Assembly: GCF_963921235.1 (NCBI RefSeq)
Contig: NC_086097.1
Span: 79,672,001 to 79,736,000 of the forward strand
Direction: 5' to 3'
Source of the DNA: Mobula hypostoma
Taxonomy: Eukaryota
DNA: 64,000 nt
The notes beneath the pieces are model-generated. The model was not told where the DNA came from and did no database searches. It saw only the letters and a list, made by a program, of their open reading frames with translations. A program made the position numbers and the translations under genes. Shown piece after piece: positions 22,206 to 64,000 of the stretch. Every line of letters begins with the position of its first letter. Positions within the stretch are counted from its first letter, which is position 1.

Positions 22206-23789
22206 TGTCATGGTCCGGATCGGGGTCCCCTTAAATTTACCTTGTTTATGTTACGATCCGGACCGTTGATTCCCTGTTTTCCCGTGTCCCTCGGCTTTGG
22301 TGATTAGAGGCAATTAACGCTCGGCTGAACCGGTAGTTTATAGTCTCCGGCTTTCAGCCGTTTGGGGGGGGATCGTCTGCAAAATCATCAAAGGTACGGT
22401 GTGCCGATGTCATCTGGCCGAAGCAAGCCTAGTCTCTGCCGAAGCCAGTGCTAGTAATGTGCCCTTCCTCACTGGAGCAACCCTGTCCAGTTACCTCGCC
22501 GAAGCTTCCTCATCAAGGTGGGTCCGTCAGTTAACCCGCCGGAGAGAATCAGGAGCCGCTGTCTACTGTTCCTGGGCCGAGTCTAGAGCTCGCCACTACC
22601 CGGAGGTTCCAAGTACCACGTCCTGGCTCTGGTGGCATCCAAGTACTACGTCCAAGTCAAGTCCTGGCCCTGGCGGCATCCGACTACCAAGTCAAGTCCT
22701 GGCCCTGGCGGTCTGTGATTCCTGTCCTACCTCCCTGTCTGAATCCCTTCTCTGCCCCTCTCGCCTCTAGCCCTCGTCTGTAGCCCTCGCCTGCACCTCG
22801 GCCTAGTTCTATCGCTGGAGCTAGATAGGAACTGTGTTGTTCTTTGGTGTTTGTCTTGTCTTGTCCTCGCCTCCATGGGGTAAGTCAGGCCGTCTTGCCA
22901 TTGCCCCACGGAGGGGGGGGGGTCATGTCTTGTCTGGTCCTCGTCTCCGTGGGGTAAGTCTGGCCGTCCTGCCGTTGCCCCGCAGGGGGTCATGTCTTGT
23001 CTTGTCTTGTCCTCGCCTCCGTGGGGTAAGTCTGTCCGTCCTGCCGTTGCCCCGCGGGGGGTCATGTCTTGTCTTGTCCTGTCCTCGCCTCCGTAGGGTA
23101 AGTCTGGCCGTCTTGCCATTGCCCCGTGGGGGGTCATGTCTTGTCTTGTCTGGTCCTCACCTCCGTGGGGTAAGTCTGGCTGTCTTGCCGTTGTCCCGCG
23201 GGGGTCATATCTTGTCTTGTCTTGTCCTCGCCTCCGTGGGGTAAGTCAGGCCATCTTGCCGTTGCCTCGTGGAGGGTCATGGGTCCCGGCCCTATGTCCT
23301 GTACCCAAGGAGGGGTCCCGGCTCTCTGTTCTGTGTGTGAGTCCTGGCCCTATGTCCTGTTCCCAAGGAGGGGTCCCGGCTTTGTATTCTGTGTATGTGT
23401 CCATGGTTACATGTACCTGCTCTCCCGAGACCGAGGCTCTGTGTTCCCATGTTCCCCCTCTCCCTCGCCCATGTCATGTCCTTACCTGGTTCTGGGGTCC
23501 GAGCCAGAGGCAAGACCCAGGTACTGGGTCCTTGCTGAGTCTCTGGCTCGGAGTCCATACCCTAGCCTCTTCACGTCTCCTCTAGTTCTGGGATCCAATT
23601 CCGAGTCCTAGCCCAGCCCCCTAGTCCCAGCCTAGTAGTAGTCCTGAGTCCTCGTCCAGTTCGCTACCCCTGCTCCTGCCTAGCTCACCTGGTATCGAAC
23701 AATAAACTAAGTCTAAGTAACCCTACAAGATACAAGATGTGTCTTGCATTTGGGTCCACCCTTGCTCCCAATGCCCCACCATTGTGACA
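22206..23789 (+). mobile_element. Solo LTR (1584 bp) of an LTR retrotransposon
   Basis: TGTCA...TGACA termini and a perfect 5-bp TSD AGTGC (22201-22205 and 23790-23794). TATA-like motif near 22338, AATAAA at 23701; GC-rich relative to the flanks. Confidence 0.85.
22850..23280 (+). repeat. Tandem array of six units of about 72 bp inside the solo LTR
   Basis: Unit is approximately gtcatgtcttgtcttgtcttgtcctcgcctccgtggggtaagtctggccgtcctgccgttgccccgcggggg; it produces the repetitive ORFs on both strands. Confidence 0.95.
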
Positions 23790-38697: not shown

Positions 38698-39257
38698 TAA
38701 TTTAGAAGTCCAACAAAACAAACTTCCTTTGTATCAGCTGATGAGAAAATGATCAAAATGTCAATGGTTAGTTATATGTGTTATAACTCCCAGATGTAGG
38801 ACTATTAAGCATCACTCACAGTCCTACATTAGGTTATGCCAGAACTTCAAGTTCCTGTGGATTGTAAATGTTTCTTCCAACTGTTGTCACTATTATTGAG
38901 AATGGATGTGAAGAGATACAAATGAGTCTGGAATTTGAGTTCATATTTAATAGAAAATAATTCCTGTTTGCCAAAGTTGTACTAACAATGCATTTAAAAA
39001 CTATTTTAAAAGTGAGCTTCTGAAGTTGTTATGCAAATCACACCATATCTTTATGGATTTAGTTAATAGGTCACAATTCTTTGATTAAACAACAGTCATG
39101 CCATTTACATGTAACTCTTTTCACATTCAGATCTTTGACTTCAATTTCACCTAATGTGCATTGTCCAAGAATCACATTTTGCTTTGCTCCCTTATGCAAC
39201 ATCACAAAGGATATTGATCTCAATGGTAGTATATGAAAAGGAATAATACAGAATATA

Positions 39258-40877
39258 CAGTGGTGTGCAAAAGTTTGGGCACCCTTGGTCAAAATTTCTG
39301 TTACTGTGAATAGCTAAGCAAGTAAAAGATGAACTGATTTCCAAAAGGCATTAAGTTAAAGATGACACATTTCTTTAATATTTTAAGCAAGATTACTTTT
39401 TTTAGTTCCATCTTTTACAGTTTCAAAATAACAAAAAAGGAAAAGGGCCTGAAGCAAAACTTTGGGCACCCTGCATGGTCAGTACTTAGTAACACCCCCT
39501 TTGGCAAGTATCACAGCTTGTAAATGCTTTTTGTAGCCAGCTAAGAGTCTTTCAATTCTTGTTTGGGGGATTTTCGTCCATTCTTCCTTGCAAAAGTCTT
39601 CTAGTTCTGTGAGGTTCTGGGGCCATCTTGCATGCATTGCTTTTTAAGGTCTATCCACAGATTTTCAATGATGTTTAGGTTGGGGAACTGTGAGGGCCAT
39701 GGCAAAACCTTCAGCTTGTGCCTCTTGAGGTAGTCCATTAAGATTTTGAGATGTGTTTAGGATCATTATCCTGTTGTAGAAGCCATCCTCTTTTCATCTT
39801 CAGCGTTTTTACAGATGGTGTGATGTTTGTTTCCAGAATTTACTGGTATTTAATTGAATTCATTCTTCTCTCTACTAGTTAAATGTTCCCTGTGCCACTG
39901 GCTGCAACACAAGCCCAAAGCATAATCGGTCCACCCCCGTGCTTAACAGCTGGAGAGGTGTTCTTTTCATGAAATTCTGCACCTTTTTTCTCCAAACATA
40001 CCTTTGCTCATTGCGGCCAAAAAGTTCTATTTTAACTTCATCAGTCCACAGGACTTGTTTCCAAAATACAGCAGGCTTGTTTAGATGTTCCTTTCCAAAC
40101 TTCTGACGCTGGATTTTGTAATGAGGATGCAGGAAAGGTTTTCTTCTGATGACTCTTCCATGAAGGTCATATTTATGCAGGTGTCACTGCACAGTAGAAC
40201 AGTGCACCACCACTCCAGAGTCTGCTCAATCTTCCTGAAGGTCTTTTGCAGTCAAACAGGGGTTTTGATGTGCCTTTCTAGCAATCCCACTAGCAGTTCT
40301 CTCGGAAAGTTTTCTTGGTCTTCCAGACCTCAACTTGACCTCCACCGTTCCTGTTAATTGCCATTTCTTAATTACATTATGAACTGAGGAAACGGCTACC
40401 TGAAAACACTTGGCTATCTTCTTATAGCCTTCTTCTGCTTTGTGGGCATCATTTATTTTAATTTTCAGAGTGTTAGGCAGCTGCTGAGAGGAGCCCATGG
40501 CTGCCAATTGTTGGGACAAGGTTTGAGGAGTCAGGGTATTTATAAAGCTTTGAAATTTGCATCACCTGGCCTTTCCTAACGATGACTGTGAACAAGCCAT
40601 AGCTCTAACAAGCTAATTAACGTCTGAGACCTTGGTAAAAGTTACCTGAGAACTCAAATCTCTTGGAGTGCCCAAACTTTTGCATGGTGCTCCTTTCCTT
40701 TTTTTCACTCTAAAATTGTACAAAACAAAAATAATACACTAATCTTACTTAAAATGTTGAAAAGAATGTTTCATCTTTAACTTTACGACTTTTGGAGATC
40801 GGTTCATCTTCTACTCACTTAACTATTCACAGTAACAGAAATTTTGACAGGGGTGCCCAAACCTTTGCATGCCACTG
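39258..40877 (-). mobile_element. Full-length Tc1-family DNA transposon (IR/DR type), transposase pseudogenised
   Basis: Flanked by TA. CAGTG...CACTG long TIRs with an internal direct repeat (tttgggcaccc). Transposase fragment GYKKIAK...GRPRKLSERT on the minus strand. Confidence 0.95.
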
Positions 40878-41496
40878 TATCTCTACTGTAGTATTGCTTG
40901 GCAGGCTGCTACAGAACTCCATACTAAAACAGCAAAATATTATTGACACCTTACAATAATGGAATAGACAGTTGATCTCTCCCACTTTCTTTGATTATTT
41001 GTTTTGTAGTGAGGAAAATCATAACATCAACAAAAGCAGATTTCGACTACTGCTATGAGGTCAAGAAAAATACTGCTGTTACATGTCAACATTGACCCAA
41101 TATTCTATACGTCTATTTGTTTATGTGCTGCTGCATTTATTCCTTTATGATTGAGAATCTTGCTCAGCAAAAGAGATAATCATCTAACACATCTCCACAG
41201 TATTCTATGTGGGCATATTTTTTATCCACAGCTGTTGAGTTTGTTTTGGGAAAAGTGAGGATTGAAAGCTTTGTAAGACATTTTGTGTGCTGGCTTTGCC
41301 ATTATAAACAAAAAAAAAGATCTTTTGATATTCTACTAATTTCTTTGAACAGCAAGCAAGCAATCTTAAAGGACCTCATGATCTACAGCTGCTCTTATCT
41401 CTTATGTCTGGTCATAAATTACAGCTCACCTCAGCAGATAAAGACATTTGAGATATGTTTGGCCATGTAGTATATTAGTTTAAGAAAGGCTTTCAA

Positions 41497-47400: not shown

Positions 47401-50400
47401 ACCCATGAACCCGGAAAGGGAACAGAACAAATAAGGAGAACGCAACCAATACTTCAATAGTATACATAGCCCAAGAAGAAAAAAACTAAAACGTGAAGCC
47501 TCTCCCACCACCCCCCACCCCATGACCTCAAGGCTAAATCTAACACAGACCAGCCAGAAAGAAGCAAGCACTAAAACTATCCCCATGACTTCCAATAGAC
47601 GCTCCCTAAAAAAAAGTGTAAATATAAAAAAGATCAGCTAGTTATAAAACAGTAAAAGAATAAAAAAAGTAAATCAATTAAAACAAACACTTAATATAAC
47701 AGAGAAAAAGCCAGAAAATATTAAAAAAACCGCAACAAACCCCAGAACCTATGAATAAACAAAAAAAGAAATTAAATTATTAACATAAACTAGTTATGAA
47801 AACCTACAAAAAAAAGTAGATTTAAAAACTACAAAATTTAAGGCCTCAAAGGAAATACGTAGAATGACGCTGAGGGAATAACCACCCAGAATCCCCTGGG
47901 AAAAAGAAAGGAATGATGCAGATAGAAAGAAAGTTTAGCAACCATATTAATTAATCAAAAATAAACTTTTCTGCCCATATAAGGCAAAAAAAAATTAAGG
48001 CCGACAAATTCACAACCTCCGATCAAACGTAGATAGTTAAAAATTACGATTAAGACGTTGAAGGTGAAAATTGATCCAGATAACTCTGGGCATCCAATGG
48101 AGATTCAAAAAACGGAGGGCTCCATCCAACGTACGAATCCTTAGACGTGCTGGGTAAAGCAGCGCTGGTTTTAAATCCATCTTGTAGAGTTCCAACATCA
48201 CAGATCTGTAACGAACCCGCTGATCCCGAATTGGTTTGCTGAAATCCTCCACGAATCGGAACTTAAGATCCAAAAAATCAATGTAACCTTTAGATCAAAC
48301 GTAACGAAACAGTTTCTCCTTGTCTTGAAAGTAATGAAAACGTAAGATGACATGTCGAGGTTTATCTGACTTAGACGAGTATGATGGAACTCTGTAAACA
48401 CGATCCAGTAACGGTGGTTGGTCAGGAAATACAGTAGGAAATGCATCTTTTAAAAGTTGAGAAAAATACTTCATAGGGTTATCAGATTCAACAGCTTCAC
48501 GCATCCCGATCATTCGAAGATTCTGCCGTCGCATTCTGGATTCTAAGTCAGAGTTTTTAAAGGTCAGAAAGTCAAGTTTCTTCTTCATTACATTAATTGT
48601 TTCTTTGATTTTCTCCATCTTGAGTTCATTTTGTTGCGTGGATTTTTGAAGATCAGATATAGCCGACTGATGTTCTGTAATAGATGTTTGTATCTTATCG
48701 ATTGAATGGGCAATTTTCTGGAAATTAATTGAAATTTCCGCACGAATCAGCTCCGTAATAGAGGTTGAAATTTCCCTTTGAATTAGATCCAATATAGCTT
48801 TCAAAGTCACCGGTGGTTCAGTCGGACGAAAATCGGTACCTTTCGGTCTAACCTGAGGTTTGCCGTCCTCCCTGTTTTTTCCATTCTTAGACATAGCAGA
48901 CCTTAAAAGCATCCGATTATCAAAGAGCCCAATTTATTTCAAAATATTGTAAAAGTCGATGCCTTAATGGTTGATTAAAATATAGCCGATCATAAGAAGA
49001 AAAACTCAGAGGTAATGGAGCGAGTCAAGAACACAACTTCACTCCATAAGCTTTACCGGAAGTCCCCGTGATATATTGTATCATGGCCACTTTGAACATA
49101 ATTAGTTATAATATTAATGGAATCAATCACCCCAATAAAAGGAAAAAAGTATTGGCTCAGTTGAAAAAACTTAATTGCTCTATAGCTCTAGTACAAGAAA
49201 AACGTTTAGGAGACATGGAACACAAAAGATTAAAAAGAGACTGGGTAGATCAAGTCTATTATTCATATTGTCCTAAAAGTAGAAAGAGAGGAGTTGCAAT
49301 ATTAGTTAACAGATCAGTTTACCTCGTAGTGGAAAAAGAGGTTAAAGACAAGCAGGGTAGATATGTGTTAGCTATGGGCTCGATGGGAGGTGAAGAGTTT
49401 ACTATCATGAGCATCTATGCACCGAATGAAGATAACCCCACCTTTTTTAAAGAAGTAGCTTTATTACTTGCCAGGGAAGCTAGAGGTACTGTTATAGTTG
49501 GAGGAGACTTTAACTGTATTCTTAATAGGAGTTTGGATAAATTACCTGGGAATGGGGAACCCCTGCGCAAGAAGTCTAAAGCAGTAAAAATTATGTTGGA
49601 TGAGCTTGGACTAGCTGATAGCTGGAGAACATTGACTCCAGGTGCCAGGGTTTTTAGTCATATATCAAAAGCCCATCGCTCATATTCAAGAATTGACCTT
49701 ATTTGCATCCCAAAGAAGAATCTACATCAGGTGAAGGAATGTGTTCTTGAACCCATTACATTGTCAGATCATGCTCCTGTTAGACTTGTACTGAAAGTAG
49801 GCTCTGAGTGGCATTTCAAATATTGGAGGCTCAATGTTTCCACGTTGATGGACCCCTCTTCCTTTAATCAACTAAAACAATGCACTGACGAATATTTTGT
49901 GTCAAATGACAATGGGGAGGTTTCCCCCTTGATACTGTGGGAAGGTGCAAAAGCTGTGATTAGGGGAAAATGTATTGATTTGGCTGTTCAAATGAAAAAA
50001 AAATCCCGAAACGAAAATATAATCAGTTACAAAGTGAAATAAAAAGATTAGAACAAAGGCACAAATTAACACTGAGCAAGGATGATTGGAAAAACCTCCA
50101 AAAGTGTAGGGATGCCTTGAATGAGTTGCTCACATATAAAGCAGAAGGAGCACTTAGAGACACAAATCAAAAAGTATTATGAGATGGGGAACCAGGCCAG
50201 CTGTCTGTTAGCATTTCAGTTGAGAAAGGCACAATCTAACAGAGTTGTACCGAAAATTAGACATCCTTTAACTCTCTCCAAGGTTTCGAACCCAAACGAT
50301 GTAGCAGAGGCACTTCGGGCCTTCTATAAAGATCTATATGATTCGTTGGATCCACCACAAAATAAAGGCAAGCTGGACGAAATTTTTAGAGATATCTGTA

Positions 50401-51933
50401 TAAACAAACTTTCTGAAAGTGAGATTGTTTCACTGACACAACCAATCTCAGAACTAGAGATAAAAGAAGTTATTAAAACATTAAAAAAATAATAAATCTC
50501 CAGGTATGGATGGATTTCTGGGTGAATTCTATAAGATATTTACAACAGAACTTACTCCAGCTTTATGTAAAGTTTTTATTTATGCTCTGAATGAACATGA
50601 CCCCCCAGAAAGCTGGTCAGAGGCAATCATATCAGTAATCCACAAGGATGGAAAGGACCCTATAGCATGTAGTTCATATACACCAATCAGCCTGCTTGGT
50701 ACTGATGTGAAGATTCTTTGTTCTCTTTTAGCAAAGAGACTACAGAAATATATAGGAAAATTGATTAATCCAGATCAAAATGGATTTATTCCAGGCCACC
50801 AGGGAGCAAACAATGTTAGAAGAGCTTTCAATATCCAGCCTTTAGCACAGAGATCCATCCACCCTTCAATGCTTCTTAGCCGAGAAGGCATTTGATAGGG
50901 TGAGCTGATATACTTAAGACTATACCTTAGAAAAAATGGGCTTTAATGCAATATTTCGAAGTTAGATGAAGACACTGAATAGAGATCCAATTTCCAGCGT
51001 TAGAGTAAATGGATACTGTTCCAATTTCTTCAGCTCAAAAGGCGAACTACACAGGGGGGTCCCCTATCCCCGATATTATTTGCCTTAAGCATTGAACCAC
51101 TGGCTGAGTTAATAAGACAAAATGAACAAATTGAGGGTATAACAGATAAAGGAGGTATAACCCATAAGACAGCTTTATTTGCAGAGGACATTCTTCTCTT
51201 TATAAAGAACCCTCTTTCATCAGTTCCCCCGCTTATGCAATGTTTGAGAAGCTATGGAGAGGTCTCTGGATACAAAATTAACGAAGCGAAATCTGAAGCT
51301 ATGATGATTACAGGGACGTGGCCAAATTATCTGGATGGTGAAATGATTTTTCGTTGGCCTAAACAGGGCTTTAGATATTTGGGGGTTAGTTTACCTCATA
51401 GTTCCTCCCAACTCTTTGCAGCCAATTATGTTAAACTTATTAACCAAGTGAGGAGAGACCTTGAACATTGGGAGATGCTTCCTTTATCACTGATAGTTGA
51501 AGTGATCAGGATGAATATATTGCCTAGGTTTCTTTTTTTTTTCTAGTGCTCTACCCATAATAGTTCCTATATCTACTTTTAAAATGTCGGATAGACTTAT
51601 CAGTAGGTTTATATGGCAGAAAAAGAAGCCCAGGGTGAGACTAAAAGTGTTATACCCAGATAAAAAACAGGGAGGTTTAGCTTTACCTCATTTAAATATC
51701 TATTATTGGGCTGCCCAATTAAGAGCAATTGTGTCATGGATCAGAGAAGACGTGGATTCAAGATGGGTTCACATAGAACAAAATTCAATTGGTGAGTTAT
51801 CTTTAGCAGCTCTTCCTTTTTAAAATCCAAACGTGTGGAAGAATGTTGAGACTCAGAATGAATGGGTTAACTATACACTGAAAGTATAGGATAGAATTAG
51901 GAAAAAAATTAGATCTTCCAAGGACTATATCAA
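41497..51933 (+). mobile_element. Outer L1-clade LINE, split by a nested L1 and 3'-truncated
   Basis: ORF1 pieces at 41637-42600 (RRNNLRI, IERAH). ORF2 starts at ATG 49083 with APE endonuclease (SYNING, GGDFN, SDH) and RT fragments. Contiguity is restored by removing 43197-49082. Confidence 0.9.
43197..49067 (-). mobile_element. Full-length L1-clade LINE (about 5.9 kb) with a 15-bp TSD
   Basis: TSD GTGATATATTGTATC at 43182-43196 and 49068-49082. ORF1 at about 48895-48037; ORF2 at 47354-43590 with SDH, RQGCPLSP, YADD and a CCHC knuckle. AATAAA and A-rich tail; several frameshifts. Confidence 0.96.
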
Positions 51934-52554
51934 GGGCCCGAAGCAAAAGTTTGGGCACCCTGCATGGCCAGTACTTAGTAACACCCCCTTTGGCAAGTAT
52001 CACAGCTTGTAAACGCTTTTCGTAGCCAGCTAAGAGTCTTTCAATTCTTGTTTGGGGGATTTTCACCCATTCTTCCTTGCAAAAGGCTTCTAGTTCTGTG
52101 AGATTCTTGGGCCATCTTGCATGCACTGCTCTTTTGAGGTCTATCCACAGATTCTCGATGATACTTAGGTTAGGGGACAGCGAGGGCCATGGCAAAACCT
52201 TCAGCTTGTGCCTCTTGAGGTAGTCCATCATGGATTTTTTCAAACGGTGTGATGTTTGCTTCCAGAATTTGCTGGTATTTAATTGAATTCATTCTTCCCT
52301 CTAACAGTAAATGTTCCTCGTGCCACTGGCTGCAACCAACACAAGCCCAAAGCATGACTGATCCACCCCCGTACTTAACAGTTGGAGAGGTGTTCTTTTC
52401 ATGAAATTCTGCACCTTTTTTCTCCAAACATACCTTTGCTCATTGCGGCCAAAATTCAGTATCAGAAGTTTGCAAAGGAACATCTAAACAAGCCTGATGC
52501 ATTTTGAAACAAGTCCTGTGGACTGATAAAGTTAAAATGGAACTTTTTGGCCGC
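51934..52554 (-). mobile_element. Rearranged internal fragment of the same Tc1 family
   Basis: WPSLSPNLSIIENLW and VKYGGGSVMLWAC motifs. The last part (about 52463-52554) is inverted. Confidence 0.9.
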
Positions 52555-53741
52555 TCTGTCCCGACGTTTGTTCACAACATCCCTAGTCTTGAGCAGCTTG
52601 GTCCAATCCTTGATGTTATCCAGCCACGTTGTTCTTTTCCTTCCTCTTCCTTTCCATATAGCAAGTCTGACAAGATGTTATCTCTCCGCGTAACGTGTCC
52701 ACAATAAGCAACTTTTAACTTCATTATCTTCTCCAGCAGTATCCATGGTCTATCAACTTCGGACAAAACCCTCTCATTTGAAACTTTCTCTACCCAGATG
52801 ATCTTCAACATTCGTCGAGAGCACCACATTTCAAAAGCATTAATTCGTTTCATGTCATCCTTCTTCAGGGTCCATGTTTCTGATCCATACCTCAGCACTG
52901 ACCACACGCAACACTCGAGGAAGCAGATCCTACTTTGGATGTCTACCTTCCTTTTGCATAGTAGATCTTTTAGCTTCATTAACTGGGTCTTAGCCATACC
53001 TATTCTCCTTCTGATCGCAACTTCACATCTTCCGTTATCTGTCAGACAACTGCCAAGATAATCAAACGTTCGCACCTGTTCAATGTCTTGTCCATTCACT
53101 TGTAATGATACCATCATGAATGAGTCTGTAGTGCTTGTTTTGCTTACCACCATCGATTTTGTTTTCTTAGGGTTGATTTTTAGTCCATATTCAAGGCTTT
53201 TCTCATTCACTTTATTCAGCATAATTTGCAGTTCGCATTCGCTGTGAGCTAACAACGCGGTGTCATCCGCATACCTGATGTTATCCACCTTCCGGCCTCC
53301 AATTGGAATACCTGTCTCCTGATGGTCGCATTCCCGAAAAATCCATTCTCCGTGGAGGTTGAACAAATCCAGCGAGCCGACACAGCCTTGCCCGACGCCG
53401 CGTTTAATACATGCCCATGGTGATAGCTCATTTTCTACCCTGACTGCCGCTTTCTGTTTCCAATACAAGTTCCTTATTATTTGCACATTCTCCTGTCCCA
53501 GATCATACTTGTTCAGCACCTCTATTACTTTCTCGTGTCTTACTTTATCAAAAGCCTTTTCATAGTCAATAAAGCATAAGTAGATGGGCTTTTGTGCCTC
53601 AATGCATCTCTCCATGATGTTTCACAACGCAAATATTCCTTCCTTTGTTCCTGAACCTCTTCGAAAACCAAACTGTGTTTCTCCAGTTTCATCACTGATT
53701 GTACCTTTCATTCTGCTGAACACTATTTTCAACAATAATTT
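52555..53741 (-). mobile_element. RTE-clade LINE reverse transcriptase fragment
   Basis: ORF 52572..53615 has CFIDYEKAFDKV, G.GQGC, IRYADD, YLGS and YGSETW motifs. Confidence 0.85.
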
Positions 53742-56700
53742 GAGGGAAGGGTGGAGAAGAGAAATGCTGCGGTGATTAGGGATTCGTCAGCTAGGGGAAG
53801 GGGCAGGAGGTTCTGTCGGCGAGAACAAGATTCCTGATGGTATGTTGCCTCGCGGTTGCCGAAGTCCGGGATATCTCGAATTGAGTCCTCAACTTTCTTA
53901 AGTGGGAGGGTGAACAGTTAGAAGTTGTGGTCCATGTAGGTACCAATGACATGGGTAGGACGAACGTCGAGGTTCTGCATAGGGAGTTTGATGCTTAAAG
54001 GGTAGGACCTCCAGAGTTGTGATCTCAGGACTGCTACTAGTGACACGTGCTAGTAAGGCCAGAATTAGGAAGATTATACAGTTTAATATGTGGCTAAGGA
54101 GTTCATATAAGAGGGAGGGCATAAGATTTTTGGATTATTGGGCTCTCTTCCAGGGAAGGTGGAATGAGATGGTTTGCACCTGAATTGGAGGGGGACTAAT
54201 ATCTTAGCAGGAGGGTTTGTTAATGCTGCATGGTGGGGTTTAAACTAGAGTTGCACGGGGATGGGAGCCAGAGTGCCAGGACAGTTAGTGGAGAGGTTGT
54301 GGAGGCAGAAGTTGGTAAGACCTCAAACACAGTTAAGAATCAAAAGATGAGCATGGTGTGACTAGTGTCCTGAGCAGCATATATTTCAATGCAAGAAATA
54401 GCGTAGGAAAGATGGGTGATAATGCTGAAGATAAGGCAGCTGGTTTACAAACAGAAGCAATGTGTGGTGAGAAGAGGCTGTTCGATAGGGCAGAATTGCA
54501 GTCAACTTGCAACATAAGAAGCGGGCAAAATTAAAAAGGATGAATACAGGTCTGAAGGTGTTATATTTGAATGCGTGCAATGCACAGAATAAGGTAGATG
54601 AACTTGTAGCACAGTTGCAGACTGGCATGTATGATGTTGTTGGCATCACTGAATCATGGCTGAAAAGCAGGGAGCTTAATGTCCATGGATATACATTGTA
54701 TCGAAAGGATAGGCAGGAAGGGAGAGGGGATGGCATTGCTGTGTTGGTAAAAAATGAAATCAAATCATTGGAAAGAAGTGAGATAGGGTCAAAAATATAG
54801 AATCATTGTGGATAGAGCTAAGGAACTGCAAGAGTAAAATGACCCTGAGGGCAGTTGTATGTGGATCCCCAAGCAGTAGTAAGGATGTGGTCTACAAATT
54901 ATAACAGGAGATAGAAAATGCATGCCAAAAGGGTAATGTTTCAATAGTCATGGGGGATTTTAATATACAGGTATATTGGGAAAATCAGGTTTCTTGCTGG
55001 ATTCCAAGAGGGGGAATTCTTGAGTACTATGAGAAGGCTTTTATAGAGTAGCTCATGGTTAAGCCCACGAGGGGATCAGCTATTCTGTATTGGGCGATTG
55101 AGTGTTGTGCAATGAACCGGAATTGATTAGAGAGAGTTTAAGGTAAAAGGATCCCTAGGGATAAGTGGACATAATATGATTGAATTTATCCTGAACTTCG
55201 AAAAGGCAAAGCTAAAGTCAGATGTATCAGTATTACAGTGGAGTAAAGGGAATTTTAGAGGCATGAGAGAGGAGTTGGCCAGAATTAATTGGAAAAGAAC
55301 ACAGGCAGGGATGATAGCAGAGCAGCAATGGCTGGAATTTCTGGAAGCGATTCGGAAGGGCACAGGATATACATCCCAAGGAGGAAGAAGTATTCTAAAG
55401 GGAAGATGACACAACCATGGCTAACAAGAGAAGTCAAAGCCAACATAAAAGCCAAAGACAGAACATATAACAGTGCAAAAATTGTGGGAAATTATAGGAT
55501 TGGGAAGCTTTTAAAAACCAATAGGTGGCAACTAAAAAGTCATCAAGAAATTAAAGATGGAATATGAAAGTATGCGAGCCAATAATATTAAAGTGGATAT
55601 CAAAAGTTTCTTCAGAATCATACAATATAAAAGAGAGGTGAGAGTGGATATCGGACCACAGGTAAATGATGCTGGAGAGGACGTAATGGGGGACAAGGAA
55701 ATGGCGGATGAACTGAATAAGTATTTCGCATCAGTCTTCACTGTGGAAGACACTAGCAGTATGGTGGAAGGTCCCGGTTCAGAGGTCATGAAGTATATGA
55801 AGTTACCATTACTAGAGAGAAGGTTCTTGGGAAACTGAAAGGTCTGAGGGTAAATAAGTCACTTGGACCAGATGGTGTATATCCCAGGGTTCTGAAAGAG
55901 ATCGTGAAGGAATTAGTTATGATCTTTCAAGAATTACTACATTCTGGAATGGTTCCGGAAGACTGGAAAATTGCAAATGTCACTCCAATCTTCAAGAAGG
56001 AAGAGAGACAGAAGAAAGGAAACGAAAGGCTAGTTCGTCTGACCTCAGTGGTTGGGAAAACATTGGAGTCGATTACATGATAAAATAGGCTGTATGGTTT
56101 CCTCAAGGAAAGATCTTGCCTAACAAATCTACTGGAATTCTTTGAAGAATTAACAAGCAAGATAGACAAAGGCAAATTGGTTGATGTTGTGTACTTGGAT
56201 TTTCAGAAGGCCTTTGACAAGCTGCTTAACAACCTATGAGTCCGTGGTATTACAGGAAAGATTCTAGCACGGATAAAGCCATGTCTGATTGGAAGGAGGC
56301 AAAAAGTGGGAATAAAGGGAGCTTTTTCTGGTTGGCTGCTGGTGACTAGTGGTGTTCCACAGGGACCGATTCCTTTTATGTTAGATGTCAATAATTTGGA
56401 TAATGGCATTGATGGCTTTGCTGCAAAGTTTATAGACGATATGAAGATTGGTAGAGAGGCAGGTAGTTTTGAGGAAGTAGAGTGACTACAGAAGGCCAGA
56501 CAAATCAGAATGGCAAAGAAATGGCAGATGGAATACAATGTCAGGAAGTGTATGGTCATGCACTTTGGTAGAATAAATGAAAGGGTTGATTATTTTCTAG
56601 ATGGAGAGAAAATATAAGAAACTGAGGTGCAAAGAGATTTGGGAGTCCTTGTGCAGGATTTCCTAAAGGTAAATTTGTCATATGAAGAGTGTTTGATGGC

Positions 56701-58745
56701 TCTGGGACAGTATTCACTAGAATTCAGAAGAATTAAGGGTGACCACATTGAAACCTATTGAATGGTGAAAGGCCTTGTTAGAGTGGATGTGGAGAGGACA
56801 TTTCCACCGATGGGAGAGTCTAAGACCAGAGGACACAGCCTCAGAACAGATGGAGTCCTTTTAGAATGAAGTGGAGGAGAAATTTCTTTAGCCACGAAGT
56901 GGTGAATCTGTGGAATTTTTTGCCACAGGCAGCTGTGGAGGTCAAGCTTTACACAGTGGCATACAAAAGTTTGGGAACCCTGGTCAAAATTTCTGTTACT
57001 CTGAATAGCTAAGCAAGTAAAACATGACCTGATTTCCAAAAGGCATTAAGTTAAAGATGACACATTTCTTTAATATTTTAAGCAAGATTACTTTTTTAGT
57101 TCCATCTTTTACAGTTTCAAAATAACAGAAAAGGAAAAGGGCCCGAAGCAACATGTTTTGGCACTCTGCATGGTCAGTACTTACTAACACCCCCTTTGGC
57201 AAGTATCACAGTTTATAAATGCTTTTTGTAGCCAGCTAAGAGTCCTTCAATTCTTGTTTGGGGGATTTTTGTCCATTCTTCCTTGCAAAAGTCTTCTAGT
57301 TCTGTGAGGTTCTTGGGCCATCTTGCATGCATTGCTCTTTTAAGGTCTATCCACAGATGTTCAATGATGTTTAGGTTGGGGAACTGTGAGGGCATGGCAA
57401 AACCTTCAGCTTGTGCCTCTTGAGGTAGTCCATTAAGATTTTGAGGTGTGTTTAGGATCATTATCTTGTTGTAGAAGCCATCCTCTTTTCATCTTCAGCT
57501 TTTTTACAGATGGTGTGATGTTTGTTTCCAGAATTTACTGGTATTTAATTGAATTCATTCTTCCCTCTACTAGTGAAATGTTCCCTGTGCCACTGGCTGC
57601 AACACAAGCCCAAAGCATAATCGATCCACTCCTGTGCTTAACAGCTGGAGAGGTGTTCTTTTCATGAAATTCTGCACCCTTTTTTCTCCAAACATACCTT
57701 TGCTCATTGCAGCCAAAAAGTTCTATTTTAACTTCATCAGGACTTGTTTCCAAAATGCAGCAGGCTTGTTCAGATGTTCCTTTCCAAACTTCTGACGCTG
57801 AATTTTGTAATGAGGATGCAGGAAAGGTTTTCTTCTGATGATTCTTCCATGAAGGTCATATTTATGCAGGTGTCACTGCACAGTAGAACAGTGCACCACC
57901 ACTCCAGAGTCTGCTCAATCTTCCTGAAGGTCTTTTACAGTCAAACAGGGGTTTTGATTTGCCTTTCTAGCAATCCTACGAGCAGTTCTCTCAGAAAGTT
58001 TTCTTGGTCTTCTAGACCTCAACTTGACCTCCACCATTCCTGTTAATTGCCATTTCTTAATTATATTACGAACTGAGGAAACGGCTACCTGAAAACGCTT
58101 GGCTATCTTCTTATAGCCTTCTCCTACTTAGTGAGCATCATTTATTTTAATTTTCAGAGTGCTAGGCAGCTGCTGAGAGGAGACTATGGCTGCTGATTGT
58201 CGGGACAAGGTTTGAGAAGTCAGGGCATTTATAAAGCTTTGAAATTTGCATGACCCTGGCCTTTCCTAACGATGACTGTGGACAAGTCATAGCTCTAACA
58301 TGCTAATTAAGGTCTGAGACCTTGGTAAAAGTTATCTGAGAGCTCAGATGTCTTGGGGTGCCCAAACTTTTGCACGGTGCTCCTTTCCTTTTTTTTCCAC
58401 TCTAAAATTGTACAAAACAAAAATAATACACTACTCTTGCTTAAAATGTTGAAAAGAATATTTCATCTTTAACTTTATGACTTTTGGAGATCAGTTCATC
58501 TTCTACTCACTTAACTATTCACAGTAACAGAAATTTTGACTAGGGGTGCCCAAACTTTTGCATGCCAGTGTATGCATCAAAGGCAGAGATTGATAAGATT
58601 CTTGACTGGTCAGGGCATGACGGGATACGGGTAAAAGGCAGGAGAGTGGGGCTGAGAGGAAAATTGGATCAGCCATGTTGAAACGGCAGCACAGACCCAA
58701 TGGGCCAAATGGTCTAATTCTACTCTGATACCTTATGGTCTTATG
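53742..58745 (+). mobile_element. CR1 LINE (ORF1 SGNH-esterase remnant, APE and RT ORF2, 3' tail) interrupted by a Tc1
   Basis: VVVHVGTND, YDVVGITESWL, MGDFN, ELNKYFASVFT and YLDFQKAFDK motifs. The 3' end resumes at 58571 and finishes in (TCTTATGG)-like repeats. Confidence 0.88.
56954..58570 (-). mobile_element. Second full-length Tc1 IR/DR transposon copy, inactive
   Basis: Colinear with and highly similar to 39258-40877, with TIRs at both ends; inserted in the CR1 3' region. Confidence 0.93.
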
Positions 58746-59922: not shown

Positions 59923-60712
59923 ATTCAAGATTCAAGATTCAAAGAACTTTATTGTCATTCTAACCATACATCAGCTCTGCAGGGCAGAATGAGACAGCGT
60001 TTCTCAGGGGCAGTGCAAGCATAACATAACAAACGCAACACTAAATAATAAACATAACAATAAATAGTAAAACACAACAGCCACATGTCAGTTAAAATCA
60101 GTTATAAGTGTCTAGTGCAAGTTAAAAGTGTCCAAAGCAGAGTCAGGTGGAGCAGCTATTTAGCAGTCTGACTGCCTGTGGGAGGAAGCTGTTTAGTAGC
60201 CTCGTGGTTTTAGTTTTGATGCTCCTGTAACGTTTGCCTGATGGCAGAAGAACAAACAGTTCATGGAGAGGGTGTGAGGGGTCTTTAATGATGCACCGTG
60301 TCTTCTGGAGGCATCGACTCTGAAAGAGGTCTTGGACAGAAGGTAGGGAGACCCCAATAACCTTCTCTGCTACCCTAACCACCCTCTGCAAGGCCTTTTT
60401 GTCGACAGCACTGCAGCTGGAGTACCAGGTTGTGATGCAAAAGGTCAGCACACTCTCAACCACGCCTCTGTAGAATGTAGTTAAGATGTTAGTGGGGAGT
60501 GATGCTTGTTTAAGCTTCCTCAGAAAGTGCAATCTCTGCTGGGCCCGTTTCACAATCCCAGTGGTGTTCCTGGACCAGGTGAGATTGTCCGAGATCTGCA
60601 CCCCAAGAAACTTGATGTTTTCCACTCTCTCCACTGTGGAGCCGCTGATGCTGAGGGTGTGTGCTCAGGCTGAGACTGTCTGAAATCGACGATCATCTCC
60701 TTGGTTTTGGTG
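59923..60712 (-). mobile_element. Rex1/Babar-like LINE 3' fragment
   Basis: ORF 60143..60634 (KFLGV.I..NLTWS.NT...KRAQQRLHFLRKL...LPSGKRYRSI), with a (TCTTGAA)n tail. Confidence 0.88.
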
Positions 60713-60819: not shown

Positions 60820-61038
60820 GAATGTAGAGAGTCATAGTAAATTTAGTCAAGAAGGAAAAGCAGCCATATGTACGGCTTAGGAAGCCAAAATCAAAAGGAG
60901 CTGGAAAAGAACTCACAAAGAAAATTAGGAGTGCCAGAATGGGCCATGAAAATTCCTTGGCAGGCAGGATAAAAGAGAATCCTAAGGCATTCTATACATA
61001 CATTGATAGCAAGAGGATAACTAGTGAGAGAGCAGGAT
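60820..61038 (+). mobile_element. CR1 ORF2 fragment truncated by the ERV insertion
   Basis: LAGRIKENPKAFYTYI motif, ending abruptly at the LTR terminus. Confidence 0.75.
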
Positions 61039-61705
61039 TGTAAACTTAAATTTGCCAGACCAATAACGACACCACAAACAGTTCTTTACTTTAACCTTTT
61101 TCACCAGTTTATTTGTTTGAACTCAGCCGGCGAGAGGCACAGATTCAGAACACCAGAGGGACAGAATTCCTCTCCCCCGGGGGCTCGTATCGAACCTCTG
61201 TCTAACATGCAGACACGTTACAATTTATAAAACTCGACAGACACAGAGCACTTAGTTCAACTGTCATTCCCACCAAGTCTGTTGGAGCAAAACTTAATTA
61301 CTTAGATAAGAGAGTCCACTAAATCAAGGTTTTAATTACAAATGGATGTATTGTCCAGCCCTTATCAGTTATTCCTTTTGCTAGGCCCTGACTTAATTAC
61401 AGACAGATGTTCACTCCTGTCCTTAACAGTGAGTCCTCCCTTTCCCTAAACAAAGAGGGAACTTAGCTCAATAAGTGCGAAACCATAAGTCAGGATGTGT
61501 GAGAACCATGAGAACTCAACCCCCATTACAGTCTTTGAGTCATTAATCTAAACAAACTGCAGGCAGATTCCTCAGTGAAGGACAAACAGAAATTTGTGCA
61601 CTATCCAGAACAGAGCACACATAAGTTTGCACTTAATTTTAACCCGTTATTTACAAGAGTCCAAGAATCATTTCTTAAATCCCCAATACCCTTAAGACTT
61701 CATCA
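61039..61705 (-). mobile_element. 3' LTR of an endogenous retrovirus (667 bp)
   Basis: TG...CA termini on the minus strand, preceded by the polypurine tract AAAAAGGAGGGAT (61706-61718). TATAAA at 61224-61229 and AATAAA at 61108-61113 lie in U3-R order. Confidence 0.85.
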
Positions 61706-61872
61706 ATCCCTCCTTTTTATCATTACATGATAAACTTTTACAATCGATCGTCCTCTCTACAACAGGATACAAAACATGGACAAAGGCACTGTAGGATACA
61801 GACAATAATCAAAATTAATACAATCACAGACTTTCGAAATGCAAAAACAACCCCCAGAAGTCCCCAAATATA

Positions 61873-63536
61873 TTAAAGGTCCAGGGCCATCCCCCTTTCA
61901 CAATTCTTAAATCGCTCAGTCACTACAGCCCCGTGCATACACCGGATACCACTCACAACACTAGTCCTAGAAATAAGATGATCAGGATTTATGATCATGT
62001 ACCCGACATCTCTTCCTATTATCCAGGTGTCCAAGGGTTTCTCTCCTTGAAGATGAGTTATGTCCCCAGCTTTGATTTCAGTGGTGTCCCAAACATCCCT
62101 CAGAATACATCGCTCTGTGCTGTTGTTACTCAGAGTACCTGGCTGGTTCACTGTAATGGTCAAACGTATTTCAGGATCGCCACAGGAACTAAGAATGCTA
62201 TTCACCGTCACAACTTCGAACTGACCCTTGTGAAAGCTTATACCATCATCTGAACACTTCCTCCTTGGGCAGCTCATTTTTGCTGCTCTGTCGAAACCTT
62301 GTAGCTTGATCCCCATCTTCGTTTCTTGTGAGTTTTCTGATAATGTAACTTCTGCAAGCATTGTTTTGTTTAATATTTTGGAATGTAGTTCATGCTGATA
62401 TGTTTCTGTCTCCAAAAGTGTGACAGCCGTTTCTTTGTTGCCTGTATAATCAGCCTGTGTCTCTTCATAGTTTTTACGTTTTGAATTTATGCAGTGAGGT
62501 ATAGTATTCCCTTTGCACAGTTCTCATTGATGTTTTGCAGGTATGTCAGGAGTTTTCAGGAGATCCAGCTTTGAGGGTGTTTGCAGCTTCTGTAGCCAAA
62601 CTTTATTCACTGGCATTGTGGACTGAATCCATTCGCTCTCCCTTTTACTGTAGCCATCATATTGTGTTTTAGTTACTCAAGTCAATGCAGAATCACAACT
62701 TTTATTCTGTATATGTATATATTGTTTTGTATCTAATCTCTGAAAAGGATTCCTTAATGGATTTATATGCGTGGGCAATTGTATGTTCCCCATATTGTTC
62801 TTTCTAGTCAAACAAAACTTTGCATCTGTCTGTACAGTAGCTGGAGATGGGAACACCTTCAAAGTACTATTTATACACTGTCTTGTCTTCATATTTTTCA
62901 GCTTCCCATTCTCAGCTCTCTTCACAGCGCTGCATAGCTGAAACCCAGAAACAGTCTGCTTAATAGCCGTTAGACACTCTTCTAGAAGACTATCGGAGGA
63001 AGCCTCTGTGTTTGCAATGTGTTAAACCTTTCTCTTTAACCAGGGTTCCTCTCCATTTCTTTGACTTCAGTGCCCCATTGGGACTAGTAAATCTTTTCCC
63101 AGGCAGCTTAATGGAACAAAGTGTCTCACAATCTTTCAATAGACTTTGCCTCTTTTTGTTCTCAGTAAACTTATATTGTGGAACCGGTTTCTCATTTTCT
63201 ATATCTGAACAGCTCAAAAAAATGCTGAGATTCAGCTATTATATTTTCCTTTGATTGGCTAAAACTATAACGGCGGACTGGTATCATAGTGGGTACTGCA
63301 ATCTCATTCATTTGTGTTTCAGGAACAGTAAAAATTTCTACATTATTCACTGGACATTCAGGGACTGCTTCACTGACATCGGAAGTGTCTGGAATACTTG
63401 ATTTCAGAAAATTCTCTTCATTGCTGCTTTCCAATTGACTTAAGTCCACGGGGAAAGTTTTTATCCCTTTTGTTTCATCAATTCCATGTACAAATGAAAT
63501 TTCCTCGGTTTCTTTTCCACCAATGATGAATTTCCT
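61873..63536 (-). pseudogene. dna2: Intronless decayed DNA2-derived reading frame inside the ERV; recognisable DNA2 N-terminal OB/pre-nuclease segment at about 61890-62230
   Basis: RLTIT...CILRDVWDTTEIKAGDITHLQG...DTWII..DVGYMIINPDHLIS.TSVVSGIRCM..AVV.ERFK matches vertebrate DNA2 as I recall it (CILRNDW...GDIIHLEG...DTWII..[30 protein letters not shown]). The upstream low-complexity frame is broken by two TGA stops and two frameshifts. Confidence 0.85.
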
Positions 63537-63555
63537 TTAATTCCAGAGAGTCCGT

Positions 63556-64000
63556 CTACTCAGTTCCTTCAGTAACACGTTTGCAGTCTGTTTGATGTAT
63601 CCACCGAGATTGCCCCCTCAGTTTCACAGCTGCGGGAGTGGTCAGTAACACCTGATACAGTCCTCTCCACCGAGGTCAGAGTTTCCCTCGATCCCAGTTC
63701 TTGATCAGGGCAAAATTTCCAGGCTCAACTGTGGAATAGTCACCTTTGGGGTGGGTTTTGTTTTCCCAATAGGCCTGCCGCACCCGTGAATGCAAGCTTT
63801 GGAGAGTTTTAGTTAACTTGCAGAAGTATTTTCCCATCTCCTCCCCCAAGGTATGCATATCTAATTTTGCAGGTAAGCTCTCAGGGAGGAGCGGCAAACA
63901 AGGTCGGGGTCCCCATGGGGTTCCAAAGGCTTCCTGTAGATAATTTCTGCAGGTGAAAACCCCGTCTTACTTGATGGCGTGATTCTCATATGGAATAGGG
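63556..64000 (-). pseudogene. pol: Retroviral pol, integrase C-terminus (class I ERV-like), disrupted
   Basis: MRITPSSKTGFSPAEIIY ... [20 protein letters not shown]...WIHQTDCK, the typical (G)PY/WIH integrase C-terminal signature. Terminal TAG at 63556-63558. Confidence 0.88.

Follow-up and report, generated by a model that had tools for sequence, protein, structure and literature searches.

The locus raises the question of how the first part of a host dna2 gene came to lie directly in front of an env-like tail in an endogenous retrovirus (ERV) of a ray, and whether the two had once been translated together as a membrane-anchored protein, as an earlier note on this DNA had suggested. The window, by which we mean the whole stretch of 64,000 nucleotides of Mobula hypostoma DNA that was analysed, was searched for the features listed in Table 1, and public contigs from 4 of 23 listed runs were aligned to positions 61560-64000 at 80% likeness. 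Runs X1 and X5 came from organism A, X6 from organism B and X12 from organism C, representing three species; X1 and X6 are DNA runs, and X5 was guessed to be RNA.

Table 1. Features of the chimeric provirus, in the order in which they are read on the minus strand
Feature	Position	Strand	Basis
pol 3' end (integrase C-terminus)	63553..64000, continues past the window edge	minus	Pfam MLVIN_C match
pol-env spacer up to the 5' junction	63531..63552	minus	Loose contig ends; frames in the window
Intron-free 5' piece of host dna2 mRNA	61890..63530	minus	tblastn, Pfam and mouse DNA2 matches
3' switch zone, dna2 to env remnant (putative)	61889..61902	minus	End of host-like X5 contig; family depth
Trp-rich membrane-proximal segment, likely env remnant (presumed true env phase)	61827..61892	minus	Codon map, phase
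Frame break, window copy versus related copies	61825..61827	unstranded	Length-difference table of contigs
Hydrophobic helix and short Cys-rich tail to the stop (likely env anchor and cytoplasmic tail)	61738..61824	minus	KD19 3.05; multicopy depth
Polypurine tract (PPT)	61707..61718	minus	12-nt purine run, 19 nt past the tail stop
3' LTR, TG...CA, about 667 nt	61039..61705	minus	AATAAA at 61113

The pol end matched the Pfam family MLVIN_C with an E value of 3e-11 and 43.2 bits against a cut-off of 29.2 when a stop was read as X. The reading is damaged by frame changes and an in-frame stop, and it ends with a stop at 63555-63553. Because an MLV-type integrase C-terminal domain, a Class I trait, lies at the terminus of pol upstream of the dna2 piece, the carrier reads as a Class I-like (gamma/epsilon-like) provirus on the minus strand. 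As is usual for retroviruses, a TG...CA LTR containing a poly(A) signal comes after the polypurine tract. The 5' edge of the LTR (61705) was marked by loose contig ends in X6 (n=3) and X12 (n=4), and the edge at 61039 was taken from the window sequence alone. The 5' LTR, gag and RT of the provirus fall beyond the 64-kb window. No relative of the pol end was found in viral contigs or in a set of 5.8 billion proteins (116 candidates, none of which passed), and a metagenome match (one of 191 candidates) was discarded as a bacterial-looking contig that matched over 17 residues only. Epsilon-like ERVs are present in a chimaera, according to the part of the source considered here (PMC4422223). Loose contig ends at 61733 and 61695-61705 indicated other families or subfamilies that have the same polypurine tract and LTR and differ just upstream.

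The provirus is embedded in a LINE-like fragment on the plus strand (60828-61038), whose reading (…KENPKAFYTYIDSKRITSERAG) halts at the LTR edge and which, we assume, resembles CR1. Elsewhere in the window, terminal inverted repeats and readings that resemble a transposase mark an element at 56953-58573 and 39255-40878 (near-full) and at 51949-52509 (partial), with copies that were 90-97% alike; it is presumably Tc1-like. Tandem repeats rich in G+C, with units of about 72 nt and then two of 58 nt, occupy 22851-23395. Decayed non-LTR retrotransposons, in which endonuclease and RT motifs were recognized by eye, lie on both strands at 49050-51823, 52572-53621, 54489-56920 and 60143-60664.

The dna2 piece matched residues 13-554 of Hypanus sabinus DNA2 by tblastn in three frames, with 73%, 82% and 83% identity, and 57-66% identity was found with Pristis DNA2, which suggests a ray as the host. 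By eye the piece starts at host residue 10, giving a span of about residues 10-554 of 1461. It also matched positions 4-81 of the 204 positions of the Pfam Dna2 profile and residues 49-151 of mouse DNA2. The piece contains the long N-terminal extension and the beginning of the Dna2 domain, without the nuclease or the helicase core. Ray DNA2 (1461 and 1459 aa) has an N-terminal extension of about 400 residues compared to mouse DNA2 (1056 aa), and this extension, at 63530-62220 in the window, makes up most of the captured piece. The piece is collinear with the host coding sequence and, with 1640 nt where the host has 1635 nt, too close to it in length to hold an intron. It is 5'-complete and 3'-truncated within the coding sequence, and its 3' end has neither poly(A) nor a target-site duplication. 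Two stops, both within 63012-61891, interrupt it, as do at least two frame changes and what looks like a third near 63510. Between the upstream stop and the 5' junction of the window copy there is no ATG in the dna2 frame.

The related contigs revealed what the dna2 piece had replaced. Summed depth, which is not a copy number, was 224-312 in X1, 134-154 in X6 and 76-135 in X12 over the tail (61724-61887), compared to 23-88, 8-63 and 3-23, respectively, over the dna2 piece. This step in depth places the tail in a multicopy family mostly free of dna2 and, since the tail is several times deeper than the dna2 piece, shows that the tail (61889-61738) is retroviral-family sequence and viral in origin. 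In all four runs, loose contig ends lay before 63531 (3, 3, 6 and 4 contigs), where a start codon followed by hydrophobic codons was seen by eye. This env-like start in the relatives lies 22 nt after the pol stop, at the point where the window continues with dna2 instead. Thus, dna2 replaces env from its start codon, lost at 63531, to about 50 codons before its stop, and it does not interrupt env. The piece accordingly has two marks of a retrocopy, being an intron-free piece of host mRNA and standing in place of an internal viral ORF without poly(A). Two joints, 61788-63545 and 61826-63534, each in a single contig with short sides, hint that env-deleted relatives exist alongside.

At the 3' junction, the earlier note had placed the end of DNA2 similarity in a run of G, and the end was found at 61891, which corresponds to Hypanus sabinus G554, within five G at 61895-61891. 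A host-like X5 contig with an aligned range of 61890-61967 stopped exactly at 61890; the contig-end figure used for this range reproduced the printed ends in all 3 records checked. The letter at 61890 is A, with which every Thr codon begins, and the host residue after G554 is Thr. Rough depth arithmetic placed the end of the family similarity about 7-15 nt above 61887, which is about 61894-61902. The host-like match reaches down to 61890 and the family match up to about 61894-61902, so that the two seem to share a short G/A-rich overlap that begins at 61890, the kind of trace expected of template switching. The recombination breakpoint that had been proposed at the start of the tail is thereby located at about 61893-61890. 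In each of the two DNA runs, the cover of one host-like contig ceased between 61923 and 61904, with depth falling from 38 to 25.8 in X1 and from 34.2 to 21.7 in X6, where chimeric contigs continued. This contig ends here as at the end of an exon, so the captured piece appears to cross a host exon junction shortly before the 3' switch. We take the boundary between exons 3 and 4 of human DNA2 to fall directly after the ETFR motif.

Past the junction, two frames of the minus strand have to be told apart. The adjoining frame reads GWPWTFNIFGDFWGLFLHFESL, as had been noted, and stops at 61826-61824. The DNA2 frame continues with MALDL to a TAA at 61875-61873, then reads YIWG...EDDRL for 44 codons, and terminates with a TAA at 61740-61738; the purine run starts 19 nt past this stop, in agreement with the earlier estimate of about 20 nt. 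Contigs of related copies had a frame-shifting length difference at 61825 (three contigs in X1, two in X6 and three in X12) or at 61827 (one contig in X1). The site is the end of the Trp-rich frame and the start of the helix, and the size of the difference equals the offset between the two frames. It follows that the Trp-rich segment, the helix and the tail stand in a single phase in the related copies, and that DNA2 is out of phase with all of them. The reading of the DNA2 frame past its single TAA is present in the window as the earlier note had it, but its residues up to about 61827 (YIWGLLGVVFAFRKS) are most likely off-frame and not part of env.

The chimera seems to be present at more than one locus. 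Contigs that spanned the junction differed from the window by 11.5% in X1, 11.8% in X6 and 6.2% in X12, and four other pieces in X6 differed by 1.0-2.8%. From the distance of 11.5-11.8% on the one hand and of 1.0-2.8% on the other, organisms A and B each appear to have the window locus plus one or more further chimeric loci, and C one or more. The difference of 11.5% excluded the second chimeric type as an allele of the window locus. The copy number of the chimera is low: apart from the host-like type, there were two to three types of sequence. At 62640-62891, X1 held four sequence types, namely that of the window and three others that differed from it by about 9% and had 1, 8 and 12 gap letters. 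Of these three, one is probably the host exon, and the others probably one or two more chimeric loci. X5 contigs at 62396-63109 and 63336-63479 showed zero difference from the dna2 piece of the window, and a host-like contig was 9% away. X5 was without cover at 61827, and no bearing on expression was drawn from this run.

The reading that we consider very probable brings these observations together as follows. A Class I (gamma/epsilon-like) ERV of a ray would have acquired the 5' third of a spliced host dna2 mRNA during reverse transcription, by two template switches between the viral RNA and a co-packaged dna2 mRNA, one at the env start codon and the other about 50 codons short of the env stop. 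This would have cost the virus SU and almost the whole of TM, and only the Trp-rich segment, the membrane helix and the Cys-rich tail would have persisted, passively, ahead of the polypurine tract. As the 3' switch would have been out of phase, the dna2 frame would end five codons into env at an off-frame TAA. The env-less chimera would then have been copied to a limited extent, at least one more time, and would have been present before the three species split. Later, a frame-shifting change at 61825-61827 on the lineage of the window copy would have brought the helix into the dna2 frame by accident, and the window copy would now be decaying neutrally as a pseudogene. The template switches and the order of these events are inferred.

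The reduced piece could still have been useful to the virus at an earlier time. An ancestral chimera might have translated a soluble, truncated DNA2, consisting of the N-terminal extension and the OB/RPA-contact region, from the env mRNA, with a benefit, and later copies would then have decayed. The env start codon is the exact site of the 5' junction, which lies one codon after an in-frame Met (M9) of Hypanus DNA2, and the copying of the chimera at least once and its occurrence in three species would fit such a benefit. In crocodilian ERVs, ORFs of nectin3 and KIT ligand are described as being under purifying selection in the part of the source that we consulted (PMC4299795). Against this stand the absence of a start codon at the junction of the window copy, its early frame change near 63510 and its further frame changes and stops, the low copy number, and the fact that the other chimeric copies had no printed contig across the 5' junction.

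The substitutions in the dna2 piece of the window copy also look neutral. Among the best-supported 40 of 514 differences, 27 fell in the long dna2 frame; 4 of these, at three adjacent bases, were dropped and 23 were scored. Non-synonymous changes made up 20 of the 23 in this support-ranked subset and synonymous ones 3, where a share of 0.74 would be expected under neutrality; the other copies carried the Hypanus residue in 16 of the 20. The test gave P 0.96 for no deficit of non-synonymous changes and P 5e-6 against a share of 0.40. These values fit neutral decay of the dna2 piece on the lineage of the window copy only, the branch right after the capture being outside this subset, and the window copy is most likely a decaying pseudogene, presumably without function. 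That the 5' switch placed host DNA2 behind the env start codon, and that an ancestral ray retrovirus thereby once made a DNA2 N-terminal fragment of 550 residues, a possible decoy for RPA or for the partners of DNA2 in end resection and gap repair during integration, is unlikely in our judgement. If it were true, a retrovirus would have appropriated a gene for DNA repair.

The capture by template switching, to which we return, holds that the tail is the end of env. The tail cannot be dna2 sequence, which was excluded as host DNA2 continues with TKQMLVG after G554. It is the final ORF segment between pol and the polypurine tract, consists of viral-family sequence and stops 19 nt before the tract, all as expected of the end of an env TM subunit. 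It also has the anatomy of one, with an aromatic-rich segment followed by a membrane-spanning helix and a short tail, in a single phase in related copies. The best 19-residue Kyte-Doolittle mean (KD19) of the helix was 3.05. Among 836 non-overlapping tiles of 153 nt, taken from both strands of the window, one attained this value, and that one may be the tail itself; of 5000 base shuffles of 61741-61893, 20 did. The hydrophobic helix exceeds chance. From position and anatomy, the tail is likely a remnant of env. The part of an env ORF in which a furin site, fusion peptide, ISD and CX6CC would lie is replaced by dna2 in the window copy.

A tail that is viral but not env, either a small accessory ORF or a non-coding 3' region that reads hydrophobic by chance, is very unlikely. 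It would agree with the outcome of the protein searches, in which no homologue of the tail was found in Pfam, in the PDB (7 chance matches, E>=2.5) or in the ESM Atlas, with a query of 44 residues of which about a third is off-frame. With the same short query, the longer proteins of the set of 5.8 billion gave 2 candidates and none at E<=10, and 1.84 billion representative proteins gave none at E<=0.001. The query is so short that the absence of matches carries little weight. The exact pattern of the tail had no match in viral contigs. It would also agree with the Cys codon at 61782-61780, which most related contigs read differently (149 of 166 by depth in X1, and all of X5, X6 and X12), so the window copy overstates the Cys count of the family. 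However, the tail lies between pol and the polypurine tract in a family with an env-like start at 63531, and its Trp-rich segment is in phase with the 19-residue helix. Fish Env clades bear Cys motifs in the TM region, as far as the source was available (PMC12813294), and the tail is alike in kind, a comparison that involved no test of homology. None of five short motifs occurred in the supplement of the same source (PMC12813294). The description of the tail as an env C-terminus therefore stands with regard to its viral-family sequence and its position, and gained no homology match in five database searches.

Returning to the out-of-phase join that the template-switch reading contains, we consider it highly improbable that the ancestral chimera encoded a membrane-anchored DNA2-Env fusion in which the TAA arose later in the window copy. 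The window does present a strong helix in the dna2 frame past one stop. The helix, however, enters this frame only through the difference at 61825-61827, which is absent from related copies in three species, and the stop is met five codons past the junction. The TAA at 61875-61873 straddles a Phe and an Asn codon of the Trp-rich frame, and for this reason it reads as an off-frame triplet within the Trp-rich reading rather than as a lesion in a fusion gene. Its presence in other copies was not directly displayed, which leaves the fusion some room; positions 61873-61875 are absent from the 40 best-supported of the 514 differences, among which 61780 and 61904 are found, and this hints that the TAA is common to the other copies. 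Two other chimeric copies bear on the phase itself. Record 10 of X12 runs from 61803 to 62177 across both the junction and the break and has a net shortfall of the size of the frame offset, at a location within the record that was not printed. Record 1 of X1 runs from 62086 over the junction, and its alignment ends at 61827 with 10 letters remaining. Both copies probably stand in the family phase and lack the state of the window at 61825-61827. Since these contigs fit the family phase, the appearance of a DNA2 frame with one stop and then a helix is most likely a late accident on the lineage of the window copy. At the other end, the env start and a signal-like stretch were replaced, and the window copy offers neither a start codon in the dna2 frame nor purifying selection on the host part. 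The ancestral fusion protein that the earlier note had raised as a possibility is thus not supported by the phase of the relatives.

An origin without viral capture, through an L1-type processed pseudogene of dna2 that inserted into a provirus already in place or through DNA-level repair of an env deletion with dna2 cDNA, followed in either case by segmental duplication, is extremely improbable even though LINEs are abundant in the window and env-deleted relatives seem to exist, because the piece is 5'-complete, 3'-truncated in coding sequence and free of poly(A) or a target-site duplication, and because env was replaced and not interrupted, which is the pattern of LTR-mediated retrocopies in the consulted part of PMC5131818.

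Under the preferred reading, two template switches into a co-packaged mRNA, the dna2 piece is most likely a new gene taken by a known mechanism, a decayed env-replacing mRNA capture like that of nectin3 in CrocERV31. In CrocERV31, nectin3 stands in place of env, which was called the more typical form of capture in the portion of the paper considered (Chong et al. 2014, PMC4299795). Both elements have a piece of host mRNA for env, few copies and a capture that predates a species split; env-intact and deleted relatives occur alongside CrocERV31 and seem to occur alongside the ray element. The nectin3 ORF is near full length and under purifying selection (PMC4299795, same portion), whereas the ray dna2 is a 5' third, broken and neutral-looking; the ray element also differs in having taken a nuclear DNA-repair gene and in having left a 50-codon env end behind. 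LTR-mediated retrocopies, as far as that source was consulted, are partial, replace internal ORFs and are recopied at times; 25 of 29 junctions in Drosophila show microsimilarity, and a human case, FAM8A1, is cited as well (Tan et al. 2016, PMC5131818). The dna2 capture shares with them a partial, intron-free mRNA piece for an internal ORF without poly(A), a chimera that was probably recopied and a likely short overlap at the switch. The text of PMC5131818 has no mention of dna2, and its species list has no cartilaginous fish, the group in which an env-bearing, Class I-like retrovirus carries dna2 here. Amphibian ERVs with a gamma-type Env captured OGFr, according to the part of the preprint at hand (bioRxiv 10.1101/2021.11.23.469661), and again an intron-free piece of a host gene lies in an anamniote ERV; unlike dna2, OGFr sits in the pol ORF with env kept and in thousands of copies. 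Within open-licence PMC and bioRxiv, no earlier report of a dna2 capture was found.

Acutely transforming retroviruses provide a further comparison, with env-onc fusions such as v-mpl, v-sis and v-sea in which host cDNA lies in the env region and env is lost. Such fusions keep the 5' end of env in frame with the host gene and are expressed. The ray element, by contrast, has dna2 where env would start, joins the two out of phase at the 3' end, and carries the host piece in broken form.

The finding adds one more env-replacing capture of a host mRNA, in cartilaginous fish and with a DNA-repair gene. It also serves as a warning that the appearance of being one stop away from a fusion can stem from a late frame change. 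Greater weight would come to it only if other chimeric copies showed an open and selected DNA2 frame. As it stands, the dna2 chimera is a shared and datable marker over three species.
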